NCBI GenBank assembly: GCA_965224085.1 | Contig: CBDCYI010000011.1 | Location: forward strand, 448,001-512,000 | Origin: Candidatus Marinacidobacterales bacterium | Lineage (GTDB): Bacteria > Acidobacteriota > Vicinamibacteria > Marinacidobacterales > SMYC01 | Length of the DNA stretch: 64,000 nucleotides | Reading direction: 5' to 3' | Part shown: in pieces, positions 35,717 through 40,908 of the stretch | Position numbering within the stretch: position 1 is the first letter of the stretch | Layout of the letters: each line of letters starts with the position of its first letter | Position numbers and translations under genes: made by a program | The notes under the pieces: model-generated | Told to the model about the DNA's origin: nothing | The model's database searches: none | What the model saw: the letters and a program-made list of their open reading frames with translations, nothing else

Positions 35717-35803
35717 CGATTGGCCGAGCGTTCTGTTGAGGGGGGTCGCTCGATTCGGTTGGAATGTCAAGTGACGTCAGTACTTTGCCTCCGAGCTGAC
35801 AAC

Positions 35804-35873
35804 TGGCACCGGGACAAGGAATCGAACCCTGCTGCTTGGGCTTTGGAGACCCTGCCGTCCCAGAACTCCCGGC
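35804..35873 (-). tRNA. tRNA-Trp(CCA), atypical short D-arm
   Basis: Acceptor GCCGGGA/TCCCGGT, loop CTCCAAA, T-arm CAGGG-TTCGATT-CCTTG, G73 + CCA; 70 nt. Confidence 0.7.
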
Positions 35874-35886
35874 ACGTAATATGTCA

Positions 35887-35956
35887 TGGAGGCCTCAGAC
35901 ACCGAACTACTCCCTGACGATTGGCTACGCCCGGGAGGATTCGAACCTCCATCGCG
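35887..35956 (-). pseudogene. Fused tRNA fragments (Arg-like 3' half; Pro-like 5' end joined to Cys-like 3' end)
   Basis: GGAGG-TTCGAAT-CCTCC-CGGGCGT..CCA (35922-35956); CAGGGAGTAGTTCGG joined to TGAGGCCTCCA. Confidence 0.5.
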
Positions 35957-35957
35957 C

Positions 35958-36034
35958 TGGTAGCTCCGGGGAGATTCGAACTCCCACTGGACGGAATCTC
36001 GGTCCGTTGCCTCTGCCAGTTGGGCTACGGAGCT
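35958..36034 (-). tRNA. tRNA-Leu(GAG) with short variable loop and C33
   Basis: AGCTCCG/CGGAGCT, A73, CCA; anticodon arm ACGGA-CCGAGAT-TCCGT; 5-nt variable region. Confidence 0.75.
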
Positions 36035-36044
36035 ACGTACTACT

Positions 36045-36120
36045 TGGAGCGACCGGCGGGAATCGAACCCGCACCCTAAGCTTGGAAGGCTCACATGCTG
36101 CCGTTGAACACCACGGTCGC
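36045..36120 (-). tRNA. tRNA-Gly(TCC)
   Basis: GCGACCG/CGGTCGC, U73, CCA; TGAGC-CTTCCAA-GCTTA; complete cloverleaf. Confidence 0.9.
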
Positions 36121-36182
36121 TCGATTTGGTGCTCCGGGTTATCGAGGTCTTTAATGAGAATGACGAGTTGGTAAAGGGGATG

Positions 36183-38075
36183 GTCGAGTAGCTCAGCCAT
36201 TCGGCTTTCGCCCTCACAGATCCGAGCGTGCGGCTTTCCCGCACTCGGCTCCTCCTGAAGGTATACCCGAAATCAGACAAGGCAAGGTAGTCGGGACGGA
36301 GTGAGGTGAGGGACTGGTAGGGGAAAGCGCTCCAACAACAAGTGAAAACGAGGCCAGGTCATTCGGCGCTGACTCCGCCGACGAAGGCTTCGAAACCACA
36401 ACCGTGTCACCTCCTCAGAAAAGGATTGGAGAGAGCGGATGTTGCTGGGAAGTCCGTAGTACGCGTAGTGACCGCGCAGCACCTGGCAAAGCCAGCGATG
36501 CTGGACGGCGACTGGAGCATGCATACGTTGCTTCGCGCGAAGCCGTAGCGACTTGAGTTTGGCTCGTAGCCGCTGGCTCTGCGTTTTGCGCTTCACGACG
36601 AAACGGCCATCGCGGGTTCTCCCACAATAATGAGTGAAACCCAGGAAAGCGAACGTCGCACACCGCCGAAGGCCCCGTTGCTCGCGTGACAAGGAAGGTA
36701 ATCTCCCGAACTCGAGCAAACGGGTCTTGTTCTCGTGGAGCGCAAGCCCGAATCGGGCTAGTCGCTCCTTGAGCGCTCTCATCATCCTGCTGGCATCGGT
36801 CCGATGCTGGAAGCCCATGACGAAGTCGTCAGCGTATCGCACGATGGAAATACGGCCTTGTGCTTCGAGCCGGCGCCATCGATGAACCCACAGATCTAGA
36901 ACGTAGTGCAGAAAGACGTTAGCCAAGAGCGGGCTCACACCTGCCCCTTGCGGTGTCCCTTCAGTTGTCTCGCTCCACTCTCCTTTCTCCAGTACGCCGG
37001 CTCGCAACCACTGACGGATGAGTCGAAGGATGCGTTTGTCGGCGACCCGGTGCGAAAGCATCCGCATCAACCACTCGTGGTCCACCGAGTCGAAGAACTT
37101 GCGGATGTCCGCGTCGAGAACCCAGTTCACGCGTTGCGTCATGAGCGCGGTGTGGAGCGCGTGCAACGCTTGGTGCGGGCTCCGTCCGGGCCGAAACCCG
37201 TACGAGAACCCGATGAAATCGACTTCGTAGACGGCGCTCAAAACCTCGGCTACCGCTCCTTGGACAATCTTGTCTTCCAGTGCGGGGATGCCAAGAGGGC
37301 GCTTTCCGCCATCCGACTTAGGAATGTACACGCGCCGCACCGGTAGTGGTCGGTAGCGACCGGCGTGTACCCGCGAGCAAAGATCCTTGATGTTGCTCAC
37401 GAAGTTCTTCTCGTAATCGGCGACAGTCTCTCCGTCGACACCAGCGCTTGCGCTGCGCTTCAACCGACGAAACGCTCGATAGAGCGCTTCGTGATCCACG
37501 TGATGCAGCAACGCAGTGAACCGAGCCTTTCTATCTCGCTTCGCTGCTTCGTTCACCCGCGTGAGATTTGGCGGTAAGGCGACCCGGCGCTGTGTCCGGA
37601 CCTTAGCCCTCTCCCGTGGGTTCCCTCCAGGCCGATCCCTTCCCTCCACCATCTCGTTGCCTTCGATAGCTTCCTCAGTACTATGAATCGGTCCGACTTC
37701 CGGCCTCAGCTCAGCACCGCGCTTCGGTTTTCCCTTGCGCGACGCCCCCATCGGTGACCATTCCGATGGACCCGGCCGGACCTCCTGGGTCCCGAAAGGA
37801 ACTCTTCGTACGTGATGTGGTCCACGACCCCGGCGGAGCGTAACCATCTCGCGATAGCGATGGCCCACATGCTGCCTTCATTGACGGGAATCAACTCGGC
37901 CTTCCGCGATATTCAGCATTTCGAGGCTACATTCACACACCCTGCACGACCCCTGTCTACGCTTCGGACCCCGCGTTGCCACGACGCCCGCAAGACTCGG
38001 TCCCGACCTGTCCGCTACGACTTTTGGTCGGATTGGACTTCCACCCATAGGCTCCTTTCAGTTAGCCCAGCGCAC
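36183..38075 (-). mobile_element. Full-length group II intron (1893 nt; RT resembles bacterial class E)
   Basis: 5' GTGCG at 38075; domain V GAGCCGAGTGCGGGAAAGCCGCACGCTCGGATC; 3' end CTACTCGAC; EBS1 UCCCGU at 37884-37889. Confidence 0.92.
36273..37652 (-). CDS. ltrA: Group II intron reverse transcriptase/maturase, no endonuclease domain (start uncertain)
   Basis: RPLGIP, SYGFRPGRS, DIRKFFD, GTPQG, RYADD, FLGF, X-domain LRGHYAYY. Confidence 0.92.
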   Translation of the reverse strand: MVEGRDRPGGNPRERAKVRTQRRVALPPNLTRVNEAAKRDRKARFTALLHHVDHEALYRAFRRLKRSASAGVDGETVADYEKNFVSNIKDLCSRVHAGRYRPLPVRRVYIPKSDGGKRPLGIPALEDKIVQGAVAEVLSAVYEVDFIGFSYGFRPGRSPHQALHALHTALMTQRVNWVLDADIRKFFDSVDHEWLMRMLSHRVADKRILRLIRQWLRAGVLEKGEWSETTEGTPQGAGVSPLLANVFLHYVLDLWVHRWRRLEAQGRISIVRYADDFVMGFQHRTDASRMMRALKERLARFGLALHENKTRLLEFGRLPSLSREQRGLRRCATFAFLGFTHYCGRTRDGRFVVKRKTQSQRLRAKLKSLRLRAKQRMHAPVAVQHRWLCQVLRGHYAYYGLPSNIRSLQSFSEEVTRLWFRSLRRRSQRRMTWPRFHLLLERFPLPVPHLTPSRLPCLV

Positions 38076-38174
38076 TCCCGCCGGATGTTGAATTTGGGGT
38101 AGCGGCGGCTCCTTGGCCGGCCTAAGAATAGGTCTGCCAAACAACCGTCTCCAGAGGGGGACAAGGAGCCACCA

Positions 38175-39521
38175 ATGCCTAGGAAATCAAAGAAGCCAGT
38201 AAGAAAGCAAACGCACTCGCCTACGGGCAAGGTAGTTGGCCAAGCCGGTCAGATACTGCTACCGATGATAGCTGGGATCGCGGCCACGAAGGCGGATCTG
38301 ACGGAATGGGTGTACGAGCAAGGACTGACAGCTCTGCACCTACTGCTCAGAGAGGACGCCGAGGAGGTCGCGGGGCTCAAGGGCAAGCACGAGAAGGAGC
38401 GAACTCATAACCACTGGGGGAGCACGAACGGAGAGCTGAGCTTCGGTGGTCGTCGCATCCAAGTGTCGCGACCTCGAGTGCGTTCGAAGTCTGGTGAGGA
38501 GGCGTCGCTTCCACACTTCGAAGCCTTCCGCGAAGAAGACCCGGCCGAGGTTTTGAGCGCCGTCTACGAAGTCGATTTCATCGGGTTCTCGTACGGGTTT
38601 CGGCCCGGACGGAGCCCGCACCAAGCGTTGCACGCGCTCCACACCGCGCTCATGACGCAACGCGTGAACTGGGTTCTCGACGCGGACATCCGCAAGTTCT
38701 TCGACTCGGTGGACCACGAGTGGTTGATGCGGATGCTTTCGCACCGGGTCGCCGACAAACGCATCCTTCGACTCATCCGTCAGTGGTTGCGAGCCGGCGT
38801 ACTGGAGAAAGGAGAGTGGAGCGAGACAACTGAAGGGACACCGCAAGGGGCAGGTGTGAGCCCGCTCTTGGCTAACGTCTTTCTGCACTACGTTCTAGAT
38901 CTGTGGGTTCATCGATGGCGCCGGCTCGAAGCACAAGGCCGTATTTCCATCGTGCGATACGCTGACGACTTCGTCATGGGCTTCCAGCATCGGACCGATG
39001 CCAGCAGGATGATGAGAGCGCTCAAGGAGCGACTAGCCCGATTCGGGCTTGCGCTCCACGAGAACAAGACCCGTTTGCTCGAGTTCGGGAGATTACCTTC
39101 CTTGTCACGCGAGCAACGGGGCCTTCGGCGGTGTGCGACGTTCGCTTTCCTGGGTTTCACTCATTATTGTGGGAGAACCCGCGATGGCCGTTTCGTCGTG
39201 AAGCGCAAAACGCAGAGCCAGCGGCTACGAGCCAAACTCAAGTCGCTACGGCTTCGCGCGAATCAACGTATGCATGCTCCAGTCGCCGTCCAGCATCGCT
39301 GGCTTTGCCAGGTGCTGCGCGGTCACTACGCGTACTACGGACTTCCCAGCAACATCCGCTCTCTCCAATCCTTTTCTGAGGAGGTGACACGGTTGTGGTT
39401 TCGAAGCCTTCGTCGGCGGAGTCAGCGCCGAATGACCTGGCCTCGTTTTCACTTGTTGTTGGAGCGCTTTCCCCTACCAGTCCCTCACCTCACTCCGTCC
39501 CGACTACCTTGCCTTGTCTGA
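38175..39521 (+). CDS. In-frame chimera: IS256 transposase N-terminus (about 123 aa) + intron RT from AEVLSAVYE to the end
   Basis: HWGST.GELSFGGRRIQVSRPRVRS..LP..FREEDP is IS256-like; sequence from 38544 is the reverse complement of 36177-37250 apart from one substitution seen. Confidence 0.75.
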   Translation: MPRKSKKPVRKQTHSPTGKVVGQAGQILLPMIAGIAATKADLTEWVYEQGLTALHLLLREDAEEVAGLKGKHEKERTHNHWGSTNGELSFGGRRIQVSRPRVRSKSGEEASLPHFEAFREEDPAEVLSAVYEVDFIGFSYGFRPGRSPHQALHALHTALMTQRVNWVLDADIRKFFDSVDHEWLMRMLSHRVADKRILRLIRQWLRAGVLEKGEWSETTEGTPQGAGVSPLLANVFLHYVLDLWVHRWRRLEAQGRISIVRYADDFVMGFQHRTDASRMMRALKERLARFGLALHENKTRLLEFGRLPSLSREQRGLRRCATFAFLGFTHYCGRTRDGRFVVKRKTQSQRLRAKLKSLRLRANQRMHAPVAVQHRWLCQVLRGHYAYYGLPSNIRSLQSFSEEVTRLWFRSLRRRSQRRMTWPRFHLLLERFPLPVPHLTPSRLPCLV

Positions 39522-39611
39522 TTTCGGGTATACCTTCAGGAGGAGCCGAGTGCGGGAAAGCCGCACGCTCGGATCTGTGAGGGCGAAAGCCGAATGGCTG
39601 AGCTACTCGAC
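38544..39611 (+). mobile_element. 5'-truncated second copy of the group II intron
   Basis: Inverted copy with domains V/VI ending CTACTCGAC at 39611; one visible difference (AAG Lys vs AAT Asn). Confidence 0.9.
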
Positions 39612-39739
39612 CATCCCCCCCCACCTTCCGCACCCGATCAATGCTATTCTCAATTTATCTTTCATCCGCGACTACAGTTGCTAGTGCTAGCCGCCCACAC
39701 TCAGGCTGCGATCCATCGCGGCGCCGTCGAACGCGCTTA

Positions 39740-40772
39740 CGGTGGGGCGAATCACGCGGGAAATCCCTTCAAGTGCCAGCGCCTGCTCGAAGACTCGGTC
39801 GAGAGATTCAGATGCTTTTTCACATCGAACTGCTCGGTCAGCTCGACGACGACGGACAAGTAGTGAGGGTGCAGATCGACTTTCTCGAGAAGACCCGCCT
39901 GTCCGAATAAAGGGTAGACGTTGACGGAATGCTCGATCGTATGGAACCCGTGGTCGGAGACGACGACGAACGTCGTTTTGTTCGCGATCCCTGCGTTCGC
40001 TCGCGCGGCGAATCAGTCCGACGTTGTAGTCCGCTGCGGTAAAGGCGGCCTTCGCGAGATAGTGATCCGGCCCATATTCGTGTTGATAGCGGTCCATCGC
40101 CGGCAAGCGGATCGCGAGCAACTGAGGTTTGTATTTCTCGATGACGTGAACTGCAGCCCGCGTCAAGATTCGATCCGACGTGACCTGTAGCGGAAGGTCG
40201 TCGTACCAATCAAAGAAGAGGTCGATGGGCACTTCGCTCTCGCGAAGCTCCTCGAGAAAGACGGGGTCCGCGGCACGGATGTCCGCTTTCATTTCCCCGG
40301 TGAGCACGAAGGGAATGCTGTGGCCCACGGCCGGATCATCTCGATTCTCCGGCCAGAAGAAGGAGGCGGTGCGGTACCCCTTGCGCTTCGCTGCGTCGAA
40401 AAGGGTGGGCACCTTCACAGACTCGGAGCGTGGTTTGTTCGTGATCTGAAAATACTCTCCGGTCACACGGTTGCGCATGCGGTCGTCGATGACTCCGTGA
40501 ACGCGCGGGGGAACTCCGGTCGGAATCGAAGTATGCGCGGGATGATGCGTGCTGGGAAAAACGGCGTGACTGCTCTTGGCCCACGCGCCGGCTCGCGCGA
40601 CCGCCCTCAGGTTGGGTAGCTCGAGCTCATCGTCTTCCAGGCGGGAGGCTGTGAATCCGTCCAGGGAAATCAAAACGACATACGCATCCTCGGAGGATTG
40701 CGGCGGCTCGGCTTCGCTAGGAATCGAGATGACAAAAGCCAAGGTGGCGAACACTGAAATTGGACGGCGCAT
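39740..40772 (-). pseudogene. Alkaline phosphatase/nucleotide pyrophosphatase family protein, frameshifted and truncated
   Basis: VLISLDG, VFPS.., FFWP, DRYQHEYGP; SDHGF in another frame. Confidence 0.75.
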
Positions 40773-40908
40773 GGCCCCTCCTCGTGCTGGCACGTTCGTA
40801 TCGCATGCGAGACGTGCGTGTCAAGGACTCGGGCGTGGCGCTTGTGTCCGCGCGTGCCCTGTGCGAGCGCGTTCATTCGTACCGCCTACTAGGATAGACT
40901 TCGCGCGT

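Follow-up and report, generated by a model that had tools for sequence, protein, structure and literature searches.

A 64,000-nt stretch of the genome of a Candidatus Marinacidobacterales bacterium (GCA_965224085.1, contig CBDCYI010000011.1, positions 448,001-512,000, forward strand; hereafter the window) carries a group II intron, apparently class E-like and without an endonuclease, that very probably uses the terminal inverted repeats (TIRs) of a 1460-bp IS256-family insertion sequence (IS) as its homing site. The target reads ...TTCAACA-N5-CGGGA / CATCCCC. Exon-binding site 1 (EBS1, UCCCGU) of the intron pairs with the terminal five or six bases of the inner TIR, and insertion falls precisely 7 bp inside the IS tip. 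The inverted arrangement of the repeat gives every IS copy two such sites, and introns occupying both of them point outward.

Several observations carry this reading. The site is defined by sequence and its position is constant; both repeats of the IS are used; empty sites exist in the same genome and in its relatives; target duplications mark the outer limits of the element; EBS1 pairs with the exon, with compensatory changes in related introns; and the 3' exon has a C at +1. Throughout, coordinates given without a contig label are positions in the window, and C-numbers denote contigs of the window's own genome (G000).

The insertion sequence and its natural ends

Full-length copies of the IS in the window's own genome measure 1460 bp, including two 7-nt tips, and have TIRs of about 40 nt. 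The transposase ORF (open reading frame) of 431 amino acids is intact in all four of them, and its product matches PF00872 (Mutator/IS256 type, E 4.5e-42). Members of the IS256 family, as ISfinder describes them, encode a single Mutator-type DDE transposase, are about 1.3-1.5 kb long with terminal inverted repeats, and generate target duplications of 8-9 bp. We searched 60 related genomes and found the same IS, full length and 91-97% identical, in G001, G002, G003, G010, G012, G016, G021, G023, G025 and G033; none of our conclusions draws on the loci L005, L018 and L027 of the unpublished genome G027.

Twelve intron-free copies from these relatives were tabulated, with L048 and L054 left out. 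Their left ends read GGGGATG/TCCCG in 11 of 12 and their right ends CGGGA/CATCCCC, also in 11 of 12, and seven copies are bounded by perfect 8-bp target duplications, one more by a duplication with a single mismatch. The tip must be 7 nt long because these duplications directly adjoin it, and the intron-free termini and the duplications together show that the sequence reconstructed across the intron is a genuine IS256-family end.

The intron and its pairing with the repeat

The full-length intron in the window is read from the minus strand. Its sense strand begins GTGCGCTGGG and finishes CTACTCGAC, which gives GTGCG...CGAC with a GUGYG-type start. The Rfam model RF02005 (D1-D4 type 6) matches it at 37818-38041 on the minus strand with 140.9 bits, well above the gathering score of 49 bits, and RF00029 (gathering score 40 bits) matches domains V and VI (Table 1). 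Three other full copies in the same genome match the intron at 100% identity, and its boundaries are exact when set against empty CGGGA/CATCCCC sites, two of them in this genome and the others in the 12 intron-free copies of the relatives.

The intron-encoded protein (IEP) is a reverse transcriptase (RT)/maturase that matches PF00078 (E 6e-39) and TIGR04416 (365.4 bits, cut-off 300 bits). Neither search gave any sign of an endonuclease: Pfam returned PF00078 alone, with no HNH or other endonuclease domain, and NCBIfam returned only RT families, TIGR04416 being the sole one above its cut-off, and no HNH family. Rhizobial IEPs share 67-70% identity with it, among them that of a disrupted copy on pRmeGR4b (69.7% over residues 2-415), which PMC5894124 calls class E. 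Our term class E-like is taken from this identity to introns so named in PMC5894124 and not from a phylogeny.

EBS1 lies in the loop of a domain I hairpin closed by a GUUG/CAAU stem and pairs with GCGGGA, the last six bases of the 5' exon. Relatives show compensatory changes at this pairing: L073 and L162 have UCCCAU with AUGGGA, and L183 has UCCCUU with an A at -5; L174 is an exception to the pattern. A first candidate for the second exon-binding site (EBS2), GGGUGU at intron positions 134-139 opposite exon positions -13 to -8, was discarded, being broken by occupied targets of the right inverted repeat (IRR) type.

The first-pass annotation of this DNA, made from the letters alone, had proposed the full intron in an IS256 end, the hairpin EBS1 and its GCGGGA partner, and the reconstructed terminus; all of these hold. 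It placed the insertion 6 bp from the tip (the target duplications make it 7 bp), and the comparisons it suggested, namely the sites of other intron copies, the presence of intron-free ends and, for three of the closer relatives, the flanks of RT homologs, agree with its reading, as described below.

Intron copies in the genome

BLAST recovered 21 intron pieces in the window's own genome. In all 11 matches that extend to intron position 1 the bases just before it read TTCAACA[T/G]C[C/G]G[G/A/C]CGGGA, and all 12 that reach position 1893 continue into CATCCCC and then into unrelated DNA; 11 of these 12 3' flanks are distinct, one pair being a duplication. The 5' exons are of both the left inverted repeat (IRL) and the IRR type. 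Viewed from the side of the target, 14 ends carry the TIR motif, of which 11 hold an intron, one holds a 4-nt intron stub and two are empty. Three IS copies (C11:1214110-1223407, C4:252508-259772 and C5:2148291-2155231) have introns at both ends, pointing outward and separated by 1446 bp, as the first-pass annotation had foreseen from the inverted arrangement, and beyond the tips two of the three retain 8-bp target duplications (CTCACGGA and CCCGGCAG).

Identity among the intron copies is 99.8-100%, which points to a recent arrival. One IS copy, at C4:256434, has 10 private differences in its body and yet carries two flanking introns that are 100% identical to the others, so the introns are younger than the IS copies that they occupy; a partial copy on C9 was left out of this comparison. 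Relatives that hold the IS lack this intron, with the sole exception of a remnant in G002, another species of the same genus. That remnant (L002:1501-2034 = G002:C1:852315-852848) is a 534-nt, 5'-truncated piece of the same intron followed by CATCCCC; its identity rounds to 100%, with at least one base differing near the 3' end.

Three bases (positions -6, -8 and -10) tell IRL from IRR. Mosaic combinations of them are confined to the three IS copies that hold an intron at each end (for example at C11:1218052, C11:1219465, C4:256450 and C5:2151613); singly occupied and empty ends show none, nor do the intron-free IS copies of relatives. The IS bodies hardly differ otherwise. We take the mosaics as a sign of gene conversion between identical inverted introns that ran on into the adjacent repeat. 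Identical inverted introns of 1.1-3.9 kb are recombination substrates, and the mosaics in doubly occupied IS copies are consistent with their acting as such.

Two loci were considered as possible departures from the TIR target and rejected. A full copy at C11:193429 shares 17 nt with the IS and looked like an ectopic site; the IS end there has been cut back by another repeated element. That element (C11:195339-195587, about 10 copies) stops 17 nt short of the 5' splice site of the intron, and the remainder of the IS256-type element at the locus has been removed. The second GGGACATCCCC site, at C5:1934553, adjoins short repeat families and has no IS256 end. One of these families is about 197 bp long (C5:1934386-1934585 and about 35 other places) and a second about 63 bp, each with dozens of copies; they look like miniature mobile elements or sequences resembling repetitive extragenic palindromes.

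Some intron fragments lie at separate loci and appear to belong together: C5:683802-684454 with C4:1823517-1824760, and C4:891077-891465 with C5:1938342-1939455. The members of these pairs overlap by 5 nt (intron positions 649-653) and 6 nt (780-785), and the overlaps look like target duplications of other ISs that split the intron, its halves having later been parted by rearrangement.

Related introns in other bacteria

Relatives of the IEP at 48-77% identity occur across many phyla. Similar 5' exons precede the introns of three of the closer relatives, in metagenome-assembled genomes (MAGs) of Binatia (77%; TTTCAACTACCAATGGGA), Armatimonadetes (70%; TTTCAACTACGGATGGGA) and Gemmatimonadota (65%; TTCAACAGCGGGCGGGA), and the EBS1 of the Armatimonadetes intron is changed to UCCCAU, matching its AUGGGA exon.

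A metagenome scan with an 18-mer made of GGGA and the first 14 bases of the intron returned 59 contigs. A domain I hairpin can be recognised after the 18-mer in 40 of them; the hairpin is lacking in 10, which may be chance matches or intron stubs. TC[A/C]A[C/G] stands at -16 to -12 in 37 of the 40 hairpin-bearing contigs (background 0.0044 per position), one further exon being too short. A Mutator-type transposase lies within 300 nt upstream in 20 of the 59, reading toward the intron in nine (IRR side) and away from it in 11 (IRL side); where at least 1500 nt of upstream sequence is available (28 contigs), it is present in 15. Among 24 3' exons, the base at +1 is C in every one and +6/+7 are CC in 21, and contigs with a common 5' exon diverge after exactly 7 nt. 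The transposases of the IS256-type elements that host these introns are 27-57% identical to the present one. These data are consistent with an intron lineage placed 7 nt inside the tips of diverse IS256-type ends.

Introns 68% identical to ours in G003, G010 and G012 have a different target (GAGTATTTTGACC..ACG/GG) and were set aside as uninformative on the TIR. In G003 such an intron (68%, same Rfam D1-D4 type) forms a head-to-tail tandem at L016:755-4766, with a 2006-nt period and no exon between the copies; further fragments spaced 881 nt apart lie nearby. Head-to-tail copies have likewise been reported for the rhizobial intron RmInt2.

A second intron nested in the first

Nested group II introns (twintrons) occur in cyanobacteria and archaea. 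Six copies of the present intron are interrupted, between outer positions 396 and 397 and 27 nt upstream of the RT start, by an inner group II intron of 2033 nt, nested in domain IV (for example L031:2008-4040 = G000:C11:1215607-1217639, minus strand); both copies in the window are uninterrupted at this site. The inner intron starts GTGTG, matches RF00029 at its 3' end with 41.3 bits, just above the gathering score, and encodes an RT/maturase of its own (TIGR04416, 392.9 bits); no Rfam D1-D4 model reached its gathering score on it. Its seven copies are all 100% identical, and the seventh lies at an unrelated site, C9:853583. Known twintrons show the same arrangement, the inner intron lying in domain IV of the outer one and ahead of the outer intron's ORF; unlike the cyanobacterial and archaeal cases, the nested pair here itself sits in the end of an IS, giving three layers of mobile elements.

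The window locus

Table 1. Features of the intron-bearing locus and its flanks (window positions)
Feature	Position	Strand	Remarks
tRNA-Leu(GAG)	35958-36034	-	ARAGORN, Rfam RF00005; left flank
tRNA-Gly(UCC)	36045-36120	-	ARAGORN, Rfam RF00005; left flank
IS left tip GGGGATG, 7 nt	36176-36182	+	Serves the full intron as 3' exon; minus-strand reading CATCCCC
Full-length group II intron, class E-like	36183-38075	-	1893 nt; RF02005 and RF00029
Domains V/VI of the full intron	36183-36253	-	RF00029, 53.2 bits (gathering score 40)
Intron-encoded RT/maturase (IEP), 459 amino acids	36273-37652 (stop included)	-	ATG at 37652; YADD motif
Empty inner-intron site	37679/37680	-	Outer intron positions 396/397; both window copies uninterrupted
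EBS1 UCCCGU, domain I hairpin loop	37884-37889 (intron 187-192)	-	GUUG/CAAU stem
IS256-family remnant, 468 bp	38076-38543	+	100% identical to positions 8-475 of full-length copies
In-frame fusion ORF, 448 amino acids	38175-39521	+	Transposase residues 1-123 and C-terminal two thirds of RT
Non-homologous junction, IS position 475 / intron position 826	38543/38544	.	Transposase codon 123 joined to intron
5'-truncated inverted intron copy (intron 826-1893)	38544-39611	+	RF00029 at 39541-39611, 53.2 bits (gathering score 40)
IS tip CATCCCC, 7 nt	39612-39618	+	After the truncated intron; flank diverges from here
Phosphodiesterase-family gene	39687-40793	-	PF01663, E 2.4e-34; right flank

The IS is present in the window as a remnant between two oppositely oriented intron copies. 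The remnant starts at 38076 with the inner IRL (TCCCGCCGGATGTTGAA on the plus strand, the 5' exon of the intron) and takes in the transposase gene from its ATG at 38175 to codon 123; this 123-residue stub gave no relevant Pfam match. The transposase frame then runs on into the truncated intron, and the resulting fusion ORF is probably an accidental product of deletion.

On each side, intron sequence and the adjoining tip make up an inverted arm of 1075 nt (36176-37250 and 38544-39618). The arms differ by a single mismatch, 36531 versus 39263, which in the right copy (39263) changes Lys to Asn in the RT, and the 1293 nt that separate them are not palindromic. The tRNA cluster on the left and the phosphodiesterase gene on the right are also adjacent in G001 (about 0.7 kb apart) and G003 (about 1.9 kb), so the composite sits within one intergenic region and marks no large rearrangement. 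Reconstruction of the empty site from G001 was ruled out, the intergenic region not being conserved.

The first-pass annotation had described inverted arms of 1074 bp (36177-37250 and 38544-39617) that differ by one base and argued that they are no fold-back chimera. The single difference stands, the arms are 1 nt longer at their outer edges, and the case against a chimera is borne out by the spacer, the mismatch, a junction outside the shared sequence and flanks that are neighbours in two relatives. Its second inverted intron copy does end at 39611 before an IS tip; it is not a whole intron, comprising positions 826-1893 fused to transposase codon 123. Both copies likewise abut IS tips as the annotation stated, but its assignment of both to one IS remnant must be loosened: the missing target duplication at this locus means that the two ends may stem from two IS copies and not one.

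To the left of the two tRNAs, 35800-35957 contains further T-arm-like motifs (GGAATCGAACC and GGATTCGAACC; repeat family D1) that ARAGORN does not call and that may be tRNA fragments or unusual tRNAs.

Alternative explanations

Every intron copy in the genome lies in this IS, and a rival history would have the intron enter one IS end a single time and then spread as a passenger, with IS transposition multiplying the intron-bearing copies. The target duplications outside the composite at two loci would be expected of a transposing composite as well. We nevertheless regard such a passenger history as highly improbable. Occupancy varies from locus to locus (twintron/twintron, twintron/simple, simple/twintron, twintron/empty and simple/truncated), two ends are empty, the relatives carry the IS free of the intron, and the diverged copy at C4:256434 holds introns identical to all the others. 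Related introns occur at the same 7-nt offset in the diverged IS256-type elements described above, and the transposase would have to act on a TIR split by 1.9-3.9 kb. Copy identity, the C4:256434 copy, the intron-free relatives and the differing occupancy together favour repeated recent homing over the spread of an intron-carrying IS. For the truncated right-hand copy and its junction at 38543/38544, an assembly artefact deserves consideration: about 20 near-identical intron pieces are scattered through the genome, long inverted repeats are error-prone for assemblers, and the locus has no target duplication, so a misassembly or a chimeric long read over identical introns might have produced it. 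We consider this quite unlikely, given that the junction is non-homologous, whereas repeat-driven misjoins fall inside shared sequence and not at its edge; that the spacer is not palindromic, unlike a fold-back; that the right arm differs from the left; and that the path through the locus is collinear with G001 and G003, where the flanking genes are neighbours. Logan contigs from the public runs X1-X4 do not bridge the junction (37950-38850 considered), and those reaching it continue as ordinary IS or intron; as Logan contigs drop rare paths and X1-X4 may not derive from the sequenced strain, this is neither support nor counter-evidence. Contigs joining the intron 5' end to an IRR-type IS end occur in X1, X2 and X3, and intron-free GGGGATG/TCCCG ends in X2 and X4. 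If the truncated copy is real, it could be the direct product of abortive retrohoming, in which the complementary DNA (cDNA) extended no further than intron position 826 before being joined to resected IS DNA. Loss of the 5' part with retention of the 3' end and 3' exon is the polarity expected of target-primed reverse transcription. Two distinct further pieces, three when a duplicate is counted, also retain the 3' end and start at 649 and 780, and most bacterial intron copies are truncated according to reviews (PMC4424553). Against this, the 649 and 780 pieces have partners ending at 653 and 785, which resembles IS interruption and rearrangement; the loss of 978 bp of IS beside the site requires an additional resection step; and one deletion between two intron-bearing ends accounts for the junction, the absent duplication and the short spacer. 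We therefore treat abortive retrohoming as possible but rather doubtful.

Some of our own results weigh against homing into the TIR, or at least limit how far it can be taken. At the window locus the sequences outside the tips are TTGGTAAA on the left and CCCCACCT on the right, with no target duplication, so that this locus has no simple single-IS history. A second EBS2 candidate, GCUG (intron 159-162) opposite exon positions -12 to -9, makes four of four pairs in 9 of 31 distinct intron/exon pairs, a value reached by 353 of 5000 shuffles and thus not significant for the pairing with the second intron-binding site (IBS2). The metagenome contigs are non-independent, and the search pattern itself fixes GGGA as the last exon bases; two of the 40 hairpin-verified introns (L156 and L189) have exons without the TIR motif. 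In six of the 28 contigs with long upstream sequence the motif occurs without an upstream transposase, the longest upstream ORF belonging to unrelated Pfam families in L166, L169 and L194 and to no family in L153, L157 and L163; the targets in these contigs may include solo ends or miniature elements. Some copies may have been carried to their sites by a transposing IS, and the splicing and mobility of the present intron are predictions from its sequence.

Proposed mechanism and history

We propose that the intron arrived recently in this genome and went on to occupy most ends of an IS already established there. A ribonucleoprotein (RNP) of intron RNA and IEP would reverse-splice into the TIR site, and, because the IEP lacks an endonuclease, cDNA synthesis would be primed at replication forks. 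Such fork-primed retrohoming by an endonuclease-less RNP has been shown for RmInt1 and RmInt2 (PMC4615759). Intron-bearing IS copies would lose their mobility, because the tip is parted from the remaining TIR by 1.9-3.9 kb of DNA. Splicing would not neutralise an intron in a TIR, since what it damages is a site in the DNA, not a message.

At the window locus, an IS between the tRNA cluster and the phosphodiesterase gene would have taken a complete intron into its IRL, and a second IS end on the right, belonging to the same IS or to a neighbouring copy, would also have taken an intron. Either one illegitimate deletion or an abortive, 5'-truncated retrohoming event would then have joined transposase codon 123 to intron position 826 and so created the 1075-bp inverted arms. 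One deletion between the intron-bearing ends of two neighbouring IS copies would explain the junction, the missing duplication and the short spacer together.

Relation to known systems

The closest parallel is RmInt2, which lies in the inverted repeats of ISRm17 in Sinorhizobium meliloti GR4. Work on RmInt2 (PMC4615759, PMC5894124) describes two oppositely oriented sites per IS, copies that are all identical and recently acquired, and tolerance of EBS2/IBS2 mismatches; the first two of these features recur here. The same sources report the authors' point that one of the two sites always lies on the lagging-strand template, and PMC4615759 shows RmInt2 homing experimentally into the ISRm17 inverted repeats. 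TIR homing is thus already published, and what is new here is its occurrence with a class E-like intron and an IS256-family element. RmInt2 belongs to class D, and the present intron is class E-like by IEP identity and not by direct comparison with RmInt2; ISRm17 belongs to the ISNCY/ISDol1 group (PMC10194956), and the present IS is of the IS256/Mutator type. Our search of the open-access literature, with subscription papers and supplements outside its reach, turned up no other introns homing into IS256 elements or TIRs, RmInt2/ISRm17 standing alone.

Other known introns share some of these features. RmInt1 in ISRm2011-2 (IS630 family) likewise has a multicopy IS as the natural homing site of an endonuclease-less intron, and its insertion blocks spread of the IS, as stated in PMC5894124. 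Its site lies within the IS and is not described there as an inverted repeat; unlike here, introns take one orientation per IS copy (PMC5894124). Rhizobial class E introns are (PMC3552965, PMC5894124) endonuclease-less with an IIB-like ribozyme, as is the case here. Two rhizobial copies that we inspected (H8 and H1) have, unlike ours, no annotated transposase adjoining them, and in Bradyrhizobium and other proteobacterial relatives the 3' exons start CACGA or CGGCA, with no IS256-type tip. Group IIC introns at attC sites and terminators are also endonuclease-less and use a repeated DNA motif resembling an inverted repeat (PMC4424553); they recognise a stem-loop with a short IBS1, whereas the present intron has a sequence-defined site that is a transposon end, and an IIB-like domain I (RF02005).

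TIR homing, with its fixed 7-bp offset, seems to be a conserved trait of a widespread intron lineage. We lean, if only slightly, toward a broader reading in which this class E-like lineage is specialised on IS256-family TIRs in several phyla, always 7 bp from the tip. Its members would be hyperparasites that part the transposase's cleavage site from the site it binds, thereby retire IS copies at the DNA level, and are themselves parasitised by a second intron, in a long-standing three-layer arms race that would also act as a natural brake on IS256 expansion. IS256-family elements drive genome rearrangement in many bacteria, and introns of this kind may curb their spread. For annotation, the arrangement explains why IS256-type ends seem to be missing beside 'ltrA' genes. 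Unlike the RmInt2 case, the present one combines a nested intron with a fixed 7-bp offset that is common to related introns in many diverged IS256-type elements. Homing into terminal inverted repeats is therefore not a strategy peculiar to one rhizobial intron, and recurs in another intron class and another IS family.

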